A stretch of 64,000 nucleotides of DNA from Escherichia coli (GTDB taxonomy: Bacteria; Pseudomonadota; Gammaproteobacteria; Enterobacterales; Enterobacteriaceae): assembly GCF_003334305.1 (NCBI RefSeq), contig NZ_QOWS01000014.1; one strand, 5' to 3'. A program made the translations under genes and the position numbers. Positions 29,456 through 32,327 of this stretch are shown here, piece after piece. Under the pieces are notes generated by a model. It saw only the letters and a program-made list of their open reading frames with translations. It made no database searches and was not told the origin of the DNA. Within the stretch, counting starts at the first letter, position 1. Each line of letters starts with the position of its first letter.

Positions 29456-30358
29456 ATGGCCAATCTCTACGACTTGAAAAAGTTCGACTTAAACCTTCTT
29501 GTCATATTTGAGTGTATTTACCAGCATTTAAGCATTAGCAAAGCTGCTGAATCACTATATATCACCCCATCAGCCGTGAGCCAGTCGTTACAACGCTTAC
29601 GTGCGCAATTTAATGACCCTTTATTCATTCGCTCAGGAAAAGGTATCGCGCCGACGACAACAGGGTTGAATCTGCATCACCATCTTGAGAAAAACCTCAA
29701 AGGCCTTGAACAAACAATTAATATAGTCAATAAGTCCGAACTAAAGAAAAACTTTATTATCTACGGCCCTCAGCTCATTTCTTGCTCTAATAATAGTATG
29801 CTGATCCGCTGCCTACGGCAAGATGCCTCTGTCGAGATTGAGTGCCATGATATCCTCATGTCAGCAGAGAATGCTGAAGAACTGTTGGTTCACCGCAAAG
29901 CCGATCTGGTGATCACCCAAATGCCAGTGATCAGCCGTTCCGTCATTTGCATGCCATTGCATACAATTCGCAATACTCTAATTTGTAGTAATAAGCATCC
30001 GCGAATTACTGACAATAGCACTTATGAACAAATTATGGCAGAAGAGTTCACCCAATTAATATCCAAATCAGCAGGAGTTGATGATATTCAAATGGAAATA
30101 GACGAGAAGTTTATGAATCGCAAAATTTCATTTCGTGGTTCCTCTTTGCTGACAATCATTAATAGCATTGCAGTTACAGATTTACTGGGAATAGTCCCCT
30201 ATGAACTTTATAATTCCTACCGTGACTTTCTTAATTTAAAAGAGATAAAACTAGAACATCCGTTACCTTCAATAAAGCTTTACATTTCCTATAATAAATC
30301 TTCTTTAAATAATTTGGTGTTCTCCCGATTTATTGACCGTCTAAATGAGAGTTTTTGA
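29456..30358 (+). CDS. ybdO: LysR-family transcriptional regulator YbdO
   Basis: 300-aa ORF with an N-terminal LysR-type HTH (…ISKAAESLYITPSAVSQSLQRLR…); markedly AT-rich coding sequence. Confidence 0.88.
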   Translation: MANLYDLKKFDLNLLVIFECIYQHLSISKAAESLYITPSAVSQSLQRLRAQFNDPLFIRSGKGIAPTTTGLNLHHHLEKNLKGLEQTINIVNKSELKKNFIIYGPQLISCSNNSMLIRCLRQDASVEIECHDILMSAENAEELLVHRKADLVITQMPVISRSVICMPLHTIRNTLICSNKHPRITDNSTYEQIMAEEFTQLISKSAGVDDIQMEIDEKFMNRKISFRGSSLLTIINSIAVTDLLGIVPYELYNSYRDFLNLKEIKLEHPLPSIKLYISYNKSSLNNLVFSRFIDRLNESF

Positions 30359-30504
30359 TATATAACTACAGACAGCTACTATAACTTTCATCTATTTATT
30401 CACAGCGCGAATGAAAAATAAAACACTCTGCTTTGCAGTGTTTACTTTATAATTAACAGACTTATCTCACTGATCACCCTGTAACGTTCAGAGAGCGTCT
30501 TCAG

Positions 30505-31725
30505 ATGTCTATTTATAAAATTCCTCTTCCGCTCAATATTCTGGAAGCTGCACGAGAGCGTATTACCTGGACACTCAACACCCTACCCCGCGTTTGTGTC
30601 TCATTTTCTGGCGGCAAAGACTCTGGTTTAATGCTGCATCTGACAGCCGAACTTGCCCGACAAATGGGCAAAAAAATCTGCGTTTTGTTTATCGACTGGG
30701 AGGCGCAATTCTCTTGCACCATTAACTATGTTCAGTCCCTGCGCGAGTTGTACACCGATGTCATCGAAGAGTTTTACTGGGTTGCGCTCCCGCTTACGAC
30801 GCAAAATTCCCTTTCACAATACCAACCCGAATGGCAGTGCTGGGAACCTGATGTCGAATGGGTGCGTCAGCCCCCGCAAGATGCGATAACCGATCCTGAC
30901 TTTTTCTGCTTTTACCAGCCAGGCATGACCTTCGAACAATTTGTACGTGAGTTTGCCGAATGGTTTTCACAAAAACGTCCGGCGGCGATGATGATCGGCA
31001 TCCGTGCGGATGAGTCCTACAACCGTTTTGTCGCCATCGCCAGTTTAAATAAACAACGTTTTGCCGACGATAAACCATGGACTACGGCCGCACCAGGCGG
31101 TCATAGCTGGTACATTTACCCCATTTACGACTGGAAAGTGGCTGATATCTGGACCTGGTATGCAAATCATCAAAGTCTCTGCAACCCACTGTATAACCTA
31201 ATGTATCAGGCAGGCGTTCCTCTGCGTCATATGCGAATTTGCGAACCTTTTGGCCCGGAGCAACGACAAGGATTATGGCTCTATCACGTTATCGAACCGG
31301 ATCGCTGGGCTGCTATGTGCGCACGAGTCAGCGGGGTAAAAAGTGGCGGCATTTACGCCGGACATGATAATCATTTCTATGGGCATCGGAAAATCCTCAA
31401 GCCAGAACATTTAGACTGGCAAGAATATGCATTATTGCTGCTCAATAGCATGCCGGAAAAAACAGCTGAGCATTACCGCAATAAAATCGCCATTTATTTG
31501 CACTGGTATCAGAAAAAAGGCATCGAGGTTCCACAAACCCAGCAAGGGGACATTGGCGCGAAAGATATCCCCTCCTGGCGGCGGATATGCAAAGTTTTAC
31601 TCAATAACGATTACTGGTGTCGGGCATTATCATTTAGTCCTACGAAAGCGAAGAACTATCAGCGTTATAACGAACGGATAAAAGGAAAACGTCAGGAATG
31701 GGGGATACTATGCAACAACGATTAA
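30505..31725 (+). CDS. ybdN: PAPS-reductase-like PP-loop ATP pyrophosphatase-family protein YbdN (DndC/SspD-like)
   Basis: 406-aa ORF carrying the PP-loop motif SGGKDS (…CVSFSGGKDSGLMLHL…) near the N-terminus. Confidence 0.88.
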   Translation: MSIYKIPLPLNILEAARERITWTLNTLPRVCVSFSGGKDSGLMLHLTAELARQMGKKICVLFIDWEAQFSCTINYVQSLRELYTDVIEEFYWVALPLTTQNSLSQYQPEWQCWEPDVEWVRQPPQDAITDPDFFCFYQPGMTFEQFVREFAEWFSQKRPAAMMIGIRADESYNRFVAIASLNKQRFADDKPWTTAAPGGHSWYIYPIYDWKVADIWTWYANHQSLCNPLYNLMYQAGVPLRHMRICEPFGPEQRQGLWLYHVIEPDRWAAMCARVSGVKSGGIYAGHDNHFYGHRKILKPEHLDWQEYALLLLNSMPEKTAEHYRNKIAIYLHWYQKKGIEVPQTQQGDIGAKDIPSWRRICKVLLNNDYWCRALSFSPTKAKNYQRYNERIKGKRQEWGILCNND

Positions 31726-32327
31726 CGCAGGATTTAACGCAATTTCTCGCCAGCTTGCCGGAAGATGATCGCATCAAAGCGATTAATGAAATCCGCATGG
31801 CGATCCATCAGGTTAGCCCCTTTCGTGAAGAGCCAGTGGATTGCGTTCTGTGGGTTAAAAACAGCCAACTTATGCCTAATGATTACAACCCAAACAACGT
31901 GGCACCACCCGAAAAAAAACTGCTGAAAAAATCCATTGAAATAGATGGTTTTACCCAACCCATTGTGGTCACGCATACGGATAAAAATGCCCTGGAAATC
32001 GTGGATGGTTTTCACCGCCATGAAATTGGTAAAGGCTCATCATCATTAAAATTACGCTTAAAAGGTTATTTGCCGGTGACCTGTCTGGAAGGTACGCGTA
32101 ATCAACGCATCGCCGCGACTATTCGTCATAATCGCGCTCGTGGACGCCATCAAATCACCGCCATGTCGGAAATCGTCCGTGAACTTAGCCAGTTGGGATG
32201 GGACGATAATAAAATTGGCAAAGAGCTAGGAATGGACAGCGACGAAGTGCTGCGCCTGAAGCAAATTAACGGCCTGCAAGAGCTGTTTGCCGACCGTCAA
32301 TATTCCCGCGCCTGGACGGTTAAATAA
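31698..32327 (+). CDS. ybdM: ParB/sulfiredoxin-fold nuclease-like protein YbdM
   Basis: 209-aa ORF overlapping the ybdN 3' end by 28 nt (a second ATG at 31710 gives a 16-nt overlap); contains the motif …IVDGFHRHEIGK… which resembles the ParB/Srx signature. Confidence 0.85.
   Translation: MGDTMQQRLTQDLTQFLASLPEDDRIKAINEIRMAIHQVSPFREEPVDCVLWVKNSQLMPNDYNPNNVAPPEKKLLKKSIEIDGFTQPIVVTHTDKNALEIVDGFHRHEIGKGSSSLKLRLKGYLPVTCLEGTRNQRIAATIRHNRARGRHQITAMSEIVRELSQLGWDDNKIGKELGMDSDEVLRLKQINGLQELFADRQYSRAWTVK

Follow-up and report, generated by a model that had tools for sequence, protein, structure and literature searches.

The citR-ybdN-ybdM locus of Escherichia coli: a silenced core copy of the phage- and plasmid-borne IbrA/IbrB pair with a possible role in DNA modification

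Here we present an analysis of the citR-ybdN-ybdM locus of Escherichia coli, which occupies positions 29456-32327 of a stretch of 64,000 nucleotides (nt) from contig NZ_QOWS01000014.1 of assembly GCF_003334305.1; the whole of that stretch is referred to below as the window. The locus consists of three genes on the + strand: citR (ybdO; 29456-30358), encoding a LysR-type regulator of 300 amino acids (aa) that represses ybdNM; ybdN (30505-31725), encoding a 406-aa IbrA-type protein predicted to be a PP-loop ATP pyrophosphatase; and ybdM (31698-32327), encoding a 209-aa IbrB-type protein. On the right, the module is bounded by the convergent gene ybdL (32328-33488, - strand), which is not a member of it. 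An earlier sequence-only reading of this DNA had described the three genes, the motifs SGGKDS in YbdN and DGFHRHE in YbdM, a 28-nt overlap of ybdN with ybdM and the convergent gene on the right, and all of these were found as described. Neither the genes, long annotated as ybdO, ybdN and ybdM in every E. coli genome, nor the IbrAB family, named in 2002, are new; the literature searched yielded no functional study of the pair, and YbdM has been termed "completely uncharacterized" (PMC8764527).

The 3' end of ybdN and the 5' end of ybdM overlap at 31698-31725 (+), by 28 nt if ybdM starts at the annotated ATG (31698) and by 16 nt if it starts at the in-frame ATG at 31710; the corresponding gaps in orthologous pairs are -28 or -16. 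A bacterial survey restricted to one genome per species gave 80 loci, 79 of them assessable, which span Proteobacteria, Bacteroidota, Firmicutes, Verrucomicrobiota, Actinobacteria, Campylobacterota and others. An IbrB-type gene came next, on the same strand, in 78 of the 79, and over these 78 loci from many phyla the gap between the two genes had a median of -4 nt, with 50 overlaps. Among viral contigs of IMG/VR, an IbrB-type gene lay on the same strand within 2.5 kb in 72 of 76 assessable cases (52 downstream, 20 upstream). Translational coupling and a stoichiometric pair, which had been proposed from the 28-nt overlap, are well supported by these counts: the pair is obligate and translationally coupled, and its overlapping genes yield the two proteins in fixed proportion. 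The locus thus shows the arrangement that defines the IbrA/IbrB family, namely a gene for a protein with PAPS_reduct and DUF3440 domains and, next on the same strand, a gene for a short ParB-like protein that is coupled to or overlaps the first.

Profile searches assigned YbdN to Pfam PAPS_reduct over residues 30-234 (1e-13) and to DUF3440 over residues 237-383 (5e-23), in agreement with the earlier suggestion of an enzyme resembling 3'-phosphoadenosine 5'-phosphosulfate (PAPS) reductase. Its PP-loop motif SGGKDS (30607-30624, +; residues 35-40) shows no substitution in 78 of 78 homologues (22-84% identity) and belongs to a set of 26 residues invariant across the 78 that also includes R19, D64, E66, G165, R167, E170, S171, R174, D209, W210, D214, R244 and R360. 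YbdN carries the SGGxDS motif in a Rossmann-like alpha/beta core that typifies PP-loop ATP pyrophosphatases, and it is predicted to be an ATP-type enzyme of the PAPS-reductase/CysD/FAD-synthase clade, which transfers AMP to phosphate or sulfate oxygens; DndC is placed, by homology, in the same PP-loop clade. Because the catalytic-type residues are invariant, YbdN should be an active enzyme and not a scaffold.

An ECGLH tail with a catalytic cysteine is the hallmark of CysH. Across the 78 homologues there is no invariant cysteine, and both the C-terminal ECGLH cysteine of CysH and the iron-sulfur (Fe-S) cysteine set of DndC are absent. The sole conserved cysteine, C372, lies in DUF3440 within the motif ND(Y/H)xC(R/K); it is present in 75 of the 78 and is an alanine in Lactobacillus phage AQ113. 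Against the curated CysH models YbdN scored 34.8 bits (TIGR02057, cut-off 254.2) and 34 bits (NF002537, cut-off 154), and against DndC it scored 22.2 bits with TIGR03183 (cut-off 290.4) and 21.8 bits, over a partial stretch, with the PADLOC model. YbdN therefore lacks the defining features of both a true PAPS reductase and DndC, and its biochemical role is probably not sulfate reduction. Some apparent "long IbrA" proteins in open reading frame calls turned out to be upstream over-extensions and not fusions. Three IbrA-like entries of AFDB, U1WY71 (552 aa), A0A2D6XAC8 (583 aa) and A0A6N3R9C3 (505 aa), have lengths that would fit IbrA-IbrB fusions; the last, from Shigella, is named "ParB-like nuclease domain protein", which may be an annotation artefact.

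YbdM consists of an N-terminal helical hairpin (residues 2-39), a ParB/sulfiredoxin (Srx) nucleotide-binding domain and a helix-turn-helix (HTH) domain. The hairpin is a feature of 19 of 75 family members, comprising the enterobacterial and some phage members. The match to Pfam ParB_N is weak (2.8e-4), and single-sequence searches of the PDB gave nothing useful; the ParB-like domain that had been proposed from the DGFHRHE motif became firm with the family profile, which matched Noc/ParB at 4e-7 and also SbnI and SerK, and with Foldseek. Using the AlphaFold2 model of the YbdM monomer (predicted local distance difference test score 87.4), Foldseek aligned Noc, CDP-bound ParB and KorB over 160-180 columns, covering both the nucleotide-binding and the HTH domains, and with the N-domain alone it recovered Srx, SbnI and SerK; the probability was 1.00 for ParB, Noc, KorB, Srx and SbnI.

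The DGFHRHE motif (32004-32024, +; residues 103-109) aligns with the GERR of Noc and is the Box II equivalent: D103, G104 and R107 are invariant (75/75), H106 is present in 74 of 75, and position 105 is phenylalanine or tyrosine. With such conservation, neither this motif nor SGGKDS can be put down to chance. Relative to ParB, the QPR of Box I is replaced by N64-P65-N66 and GERR by G104-(F/Y)105-H106-R107, in each case with invariant or nearly invariant residues. A further arginine/asparagine motif, RHNRARG (32124-32144, +; residues 143-149), is Box III-like and extends to RHNRARGxH (143-151), in which R143, N145, R146, A147, G149 and H151 are invariant and H144 and R148 occur in 74 of 75. Box I, the catalytic glutamate of Box II and the C-terminal dimerisation domain of the canonical ParB CTPase clamp are all wanting, the model ending after the HTH at residue 196, and the position of the GGCHR cysteine of sulfiredoxin is occupied by phenylalanine or tyrosine in 74 of 75 members. 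As judged from sequence and model, YbdM is a ParB/Srx-superfamily protein of the DGxHR type that is neither a canonical CTPase clamp nor a sulfiredoxin. Specificity for CTP or another nucleotide is not predictable from sequence in these proteins (10.1101/2025.10.10.680097). In E. coli carrying plasmid pUUH239.2, YbdM protein was 29-fold up, an effect tied to blaCTX-M-15, and YbdM overexpression lowered growth rate by 10% (PMC8764527).

A SNF2-family helicase is a recurrent neighbour of the pair: its gene immediately precedes the ybdN homologue in 18 bacterial loci in a first clustering (17 in the combined clustering) and in 21 viral loci; where examined (L057), the SNF2 gene overlaps the ybdN homologue by 4 nt. 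In Bacteroidota, a protein of about 135 aa is encoded upstream of the ybdN homologue in 26 loci. It is homologous to a GNAT domain that is fused to SNF2 in one locus (L030:8215-10011; hhalign 96%, E 2e-9), lacks the RxxGxG motif and represents a divergent GNAT fold; in Pfam searches, the small upstream protein gave a single sub-threshold GNAT match (E≤0.1) in one member, and the sole significant match was that of the fused GNAT domain itself. Phages add a helical domain of about 130 aa (A5), which is encoded by a separate adjacent gene or forms a C-terminal extension of IbrB. It has a conserved WE..(Y/F) near its start and an NR.AW.GQA-like motif (alignment of L109:7546-7974, L132:1231-1692, L004:7219-7632 and 22 others), and searches of Pfam, PHROG and PADLOC gave no match. 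A cupin-like protein is a further recurrent neighbour of the phage pair. A small phrog_26647-like protein lies upstream of IbrA in some loci and in one representative forms a fusion with IbrA, and another representative has an IbrA with a GNAT-like tail (fusion and partner examples: L030:8215-10011, L039:9606-10004, P0123 and P0178). Across 160 loci, no nuclease, methyltransferase, cysteine desulfurase, restriction or other defence-type gene recurred, nor did DndA, DndD, DndE, SspABC, other cys genes, transporters or pathway genes.

The locus had also been described as an island. That it is an accessory island is refuted by its presence in 5423 of 5426 complete E. coli genomes and by synteny over five enterobacterial genera, the order ahpCF-dsbG-citR-ybdN-ybdM-ybdL-hcxA being conserved in Citrobacter, Enterobacter, Pseudocitrobacter and Kluyvera. 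Over 3.15 kb the segment matches E. coli 2013C-3181 with 100% identity, and E. coli genome annotation lists citR, ybdN and ybdM, the last as "IbrB-like domain-containing protein". The citR-ybdN-ybdM locus is the ancestral core locus, a vertically inherited enterobacterial copy of the IbrA/IbrB module; outside this locus, the module is carried mainly by phages, plasmids and genomic islands. Relatives of YbdN are encoded in 224 GenBank phage records, from phages of Flavobacterium, Mycobacterium, Streptococcus, Arthrobacter and others, and the PHROG matches are strong (phrog_2302 at 1e-76 for YbdN; phrog_2159 at 4e-69 for YbdM). In annotated examples from Streptococcus and Lactobacillus phages the pair follows the lysis genes, and in Arthrobacter phage Laroye its neighbours are a methyltransferase and the terminase. 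When 1.84 billion cluster representatives were searched exhaustively, 1005 clusters were recovered at E≤1e-10, and relatives in AFDB reach Streptomyces, Deinococcus, candidate phyla and a Heimdallarchaeum.

Within E. coli, a second, accessory IbrAB-like copy was found in 2146 of the 5426 genomes, with up to four per genome; the query was a plasmid paralogue whose IbrB is about 57% identical to YbdM, and the IbrB proteins of such accessory copies share about 55-57% of their sequence with YbdM. The accessory copies are located either in an island linked to tRNA-Asn or next to aerobactin genes and a PerC regulator, and some are frameshifted. YbdM paralogues are present on 798 PLSDB plasmids, in contexts that include Klebsiella virulence plasmids, by iroBCDN, E. 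coli IncF plasmids, by an autotransporter gene, and Shigella pINV, where the copies are disrupted by insertion sequences. On a K. pneumoniae IncFIB/IncHI1B plasmid (L006:7784-9645), the IbrAB-like pair immediately precedes iroBCDN and has fecIA close by. On Shigella pINV (L008:9001-9639), the IbrB-like gene alone is annotated, among osp effector genes and directly downstream of two IS3 transposase genes. A functional link to the ent, iro and fec siderophore genes, by analogy with SbnI, was considered and rejected, the proximity being limited to a few replicons.

CitR scored 467.9 bits against the NCBIfam equivalog NF047710 (cut-off 400), the family named repressor CitR. Silencing by H-NS, which the sequence-only reading had anticipated, is borne out for ybdO: H-NS binds and represses the gene in strains K-12, SE11 and SE15, through an upstream and a downstream repression element (URE and DRE), with a transcription start site 107 nt 5' of the ATG (PMC4720273), and it binds the ybdO promoter in vitro in an electrophoretic mobility shift assay (PMC9141747). 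The further expectation that the pair is switched on by YbdO is contradicted, because loss of citR raises ybdN by 5.5 and ybdM by 2.5 log2 units (PMC9068703) and because NCBIfam names the protein a repressor. A ChIP-exo peak of CitR lies upstream of citR-ybdNM, and the deletion also raises the cys regulon (PMC9068703, Table 1). According to the published work, both H-NS and the repressor CitR thus hold the E. coli operon in the off state.

Within E. coli, the alleles are deeply split over a block at about 29250-30750, and over this block only; it takes in citR, both of the adjoining spacers and roughly the first 240 nt of ybdN. The citR gene of strain CH4796 shares 78.7% of its DNA sequence and 88.4% of its protein sequence with that of the window, with synonymous divergence (dS) saturated at about 3.5 and a ratio of nonsynonymous to synonymous divergence (dN/dS) of 0.02, whereas dS is 0.10-0.15 in the genes flanking the block. 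DNA identity within the block is 70-84%, with 83% in the dsbG-citR spacer and 71% in the citR-ybdN spacer. A band of 80-90% identity holds 1772 complete genomes, about a third, CH4796 among them. The divergence of the citR allele is not new, having been reported already, with ybdO among the 50 fastest-diverging genes (PMC4720273). Despite the 71% identity of the citR-ybdN spacer (30359-30504), the divergent allele keeps an ATTC-N7-GAAT dyad at 30398-30412, which is a candidate CitR box of the LysR type, and a TATAAT hexamer at 30448-30453, which is a candidate ybdN promoter.

To establish a context for the function of the pair, it is useful to compare it with systems of similar composition. 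IbrA and IbrB of the IbrAB island of strain ECOR-9 have families, gene order and overlapping genes in common with ybdNM, and Sandt, Hopper and Hill reportedly found in 2002 that ibrA and ibrB together activate silent prophage eib genes in trans. This homology had been pointed out in the sequence-only reading and is reflected in RefSeq, where YbdM is "IbrB-like", in UniProt, where YbdN homologues are "immunoglobulin-binding regulator", and in phage annotations. The difference is that ybdNM is core and syntenic and has a dedicated LysR repressor, whereas the accessory copies lack citR and belong to islands, prophage-like elements and plasmids. Dnd (DndC/DndB), SspD, BrxP of BREX type 4 and TdpC likewise place a PAPS-reductase-like PP-loop enzyme beside a DGxHR-type ParB/Srx protein. 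Compared with Dnd, however, YbdN falls far below the DndC cut-off, lacks the DndC cysteines, is accompanied by neither DndA/D/E nor SspABC and carries DUF3440 instead, and YbdM matches no DndB model. In comparison with CysH, CysD and the PAPS domain of FAD synthase, YbdN has the extra 170-residue DUF3440, which is without a solved relative, and it has a ParB partner in place of CysN.

A ParB-like protein is also a required partner of a DNA-modifying enzyme in the 5mYOX/ParB phage thymine dioxygenases, where it activates the enzyme (PMC13229309), and in DpdA/DpdB (PMC12839542, which treats DpdB and DndB). The enzymes differ, being an iron/2-oxoglutarate dioxygenase or a tRNA-guanine transglycosylase where YbdN is a PP-loop protein. 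The ParB proteins differ as well: those of the dioxygenase and Dpd systems keep the CTP-motif residues and C-terminal dimerisation and have no obvious DNA-binding domain, and YbdM is the reverse.

The reading that we favour, at a probability of roughly 40%, is that YbdN and YbdM, of phage origin, form an enzyme pair directed at DNA, which it adenylates or modifies, and that E. coli holds this pair in a silent state. DNA-directed adenylation is favoured because it joins the evidence for an active, adenylyl-transferring PP-loop fold, the ParB/HTH and SNF2 partners and the phenotype of prophage activation in trans, and double-stranded DNA is the suggested place of action because of the obligate, stoichiometric ParB/HTH partner and the SNF2 translocase. 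Action on nucleic acid, as the sequence-only reading had inferred, is plausible, with indirect support from the SNF2 partner. In such a scheme, for which the two proteins were modelled as monomers, YbdM would bind DNA and position or activate YbdN, which would adenylate a group on the nucleic acid, be it in a base or a backbone phosphate, and thereby start a covalent change; the single conserved Cys372 possibly serves to resolve it. Altered reading of the DNA could then account for the activation of silent prophage eib genes in trans by IbrAB, and modification by phage copies might allow escape from host nucleases. The SNF2 translocase, the GNAT-like and cupin proteins and the two unannotated partners would extend or direct the reaction in other lineages.

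Several points weigh against the proposal. ParB/Srx domains elsewhere are small-molecule kinases (SerK, SbnI) or plain regulators (VirB, KorB), and SNF2 genes are common in phage replication modules, so that part of the adjacency may be positional. DNA modification is not known from any member of the family, no sulfur or amine donor gene recurs beside the pair in the 160 loci, and the presence of a single conserved cysteine, itself replaced in AQ113, excludes Fe-S chemistry of the Dnd type. A bolder formulation, which we regard as somewhat doubtful, is that of a self-sufficient nucleic-acid modification in which a non-clamp ParB/Srx protein delivers an adenylyltransferase of the PAPS-reductase clade. 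Here a backbone or base adduct would be made without partners of the Dnd, Ssp or BREX type. For phages and plasmids the system would be a means of evading restriction or silencing, and in Enterobacteriaceae it would have been domesticated into a tightly repressed epigenetic switch.

The main rival to covalent modification is a non-covalent transcription co-activator or counter-silencer, in which YbdM would bind DNA in the manner of VirB, KorB or BisD and relieve H-NS, with YbdN serving as no more than a cofactor or loader that depends on nucleotide. The sole phenotype reported for the family, activation of prophage eib genes (Sandt 2002, cited in PMC8065619), speaks for this rival, as do the database names, "co-activator of prophage gene expression" and "immunoglobulin-binding regulator". 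VirB, KorB and BisD share with YbdM a ParB N-domain and an HTH and influence how horizontally acquired genes are expressed; of the solved folds, that of KorB is one of the closest to YbdM, and ParB-like activators are described in PMC10770331 (VirB) and PMC12409273 (BisD). The accessory copies, moreover, sit in virulence cargo, beside the PerC regulator, the autotransporter gene and iro genes and on Shigella pINV. However, these activators are CTP-dependent clamps of the GERR type with dimerisation domains, whereas YbdM has NPN and DGFHR, lacks the catalytic glutamine and glutamate of ParB, the first arginine of GERR and the C-terminal dimerisation domain that a clamp requires, and has an obligate enzyme partner. 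The invariance of every catalytic-type residue of YbdN across phyla would be unexpected for a passive cofactor, annotated lytic phages carry the pair with no integrase or repressor nearby, and the recurrent helicase, GNAT and cupin partners look enzymatic. We consider the co-activator rather unlikely.

Less probable still, though not by any means negligible, is a substrate other than DNA, whether RNA or tRNA, protein, or a small molecule or nucleotide; for instance, the pair might produce a metabolite or signal that is adenylated or phosphorylated, YbdM being a phosphotransferase resembling Srx or SerK or a ligand-controlled regulator. The DGxHR motif is of the Srx/SerK/SbnI type, that is, of small-molecule or protein kinases, cupin and GNAT-like partners fit small-molecule chemistry, and the rise of the cys regulon on citR deletion points the same way. 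Set against this, the HTH of YbdM aligns with the DNA-binding domain of ParB, a double-stranded DNA translocase of the SNF2 family is a recurrent partner, and no transporter or pathway genes recur nearby.

The sequence-only reading had classed the pair as a candidate defence-type module, and anti-phage or anti-plasmid defence, by marking self DNA or sensing foreign DNA, was accordingly considered. The weak DndC and BrxP similarity, a SNF2 partner that generically resembles ZorD, DpdE and DrmD, and the accessory copies in islands and on plasmids would all be compatible with it. No system of PADLOC-DB 2.0 was matched, however, the sub-threshold DndC/BrxP similarity and the generic SNF2 similarity lying within noise, and no restriction, nuclease or effector gene recurred in the survey of 160 loci. 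Phage genomes, annotated lytic ones included, carry the family no less often than hosts do, and the E. coli copy is core, syntenic and silenced, all of which leaves a defence role quite improbable.

That YbdN is a true PAPS reductase, either a CysH paralogue or a viral "CysH auxiliary metabolic gene" for sulfate assimilation, has in its favour the PAPS_reduct domain, whose name annotation pipelines and PHROGs use, and the virome papers that count the DUF3440 clade as CysH (10.1101/2021.01.05.425418; 10.64898/2026.02.18.706556), but is scarcely credible in view of the CysH scores, the full ATP-type PP-loop, the missing ECGLH cysteine with the conserved cysteine in a different motif, the obligate ParB-like partner and the absence of other cys genes nearby. 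The viral "CysH" assignment of this clade (10.1101/2021.01.05.425418) is contradicted, because YbdN failed both on the CysH scores and on the cysteines. The active-site and partner evidence argues that virome studies in which the DUF3440 clade is counted among the "CysH" genes of sulfur metabolism misread that clade, whatever the mechanism of the pair. If the bolder reading of a self-sufficient modification system is true, the widespread viral auxiliary metabolic genes described as "CysH plus DUF3440" are misassigned.

The pair belongs to the core genome of the best-studied bacterium, and has extra copies in about 40% of E. coli strains; some 800 sequenced plasmids, among them virulence plasmids of Klebsiella and Shigella, and hundreds of phage genomes carry it too. 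Should the pair prove to modify DNA, it would constitute a compact new branch of the theme of PP-loop enzyme plus ParB protein known from Dnd, Ssp and BREX type 4, and it would provide a mechanism for the awakening of silent prophage genes by IbrAB.

The composition of the locus is uneven. GC content is 0.386 in citR, 0.312 in the dsbG-citR spacer and 0.349 in the citR-ybdN spacer, compared with 0.470 in dsbG, 0.537 in ybdL and 0.516 in the whole window, in accord with the earlier remark that ybdO and the flanking intergenic DNA are AT-richer than their neighbours. Marked AT-richness is confined to citR and its two spacers, ybdN (0.476) and ybdM (0.468) being slightly below average. The dsbG-citR spacer (29248-29455) holds the dsbG terminator hairpin, the citR promoter and the H-NS upstream element. 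A scan for promoters and terminators performed no better than on shuffled sequence. At the other end of the locus, the stop codons of ybdM and ybdL abut at 32325-32330 with zero intergenic bases, and no terminator-like site was found between the two genes; the convergent transcripts must therefore enter each other's coding sequence.

Two further features of the window were recorded. The ahpC-dsbG intergenic region contains a match to the Rfam small RNA STnc70 (28274-28367, - strand; 44.1 bits against a gathering score of 40). Between rnk and uspG lies a gene for a 412-aa zinc-type dehydrogenase (23822-25060, - strand), where CH4796 has a short yldA segment instead.

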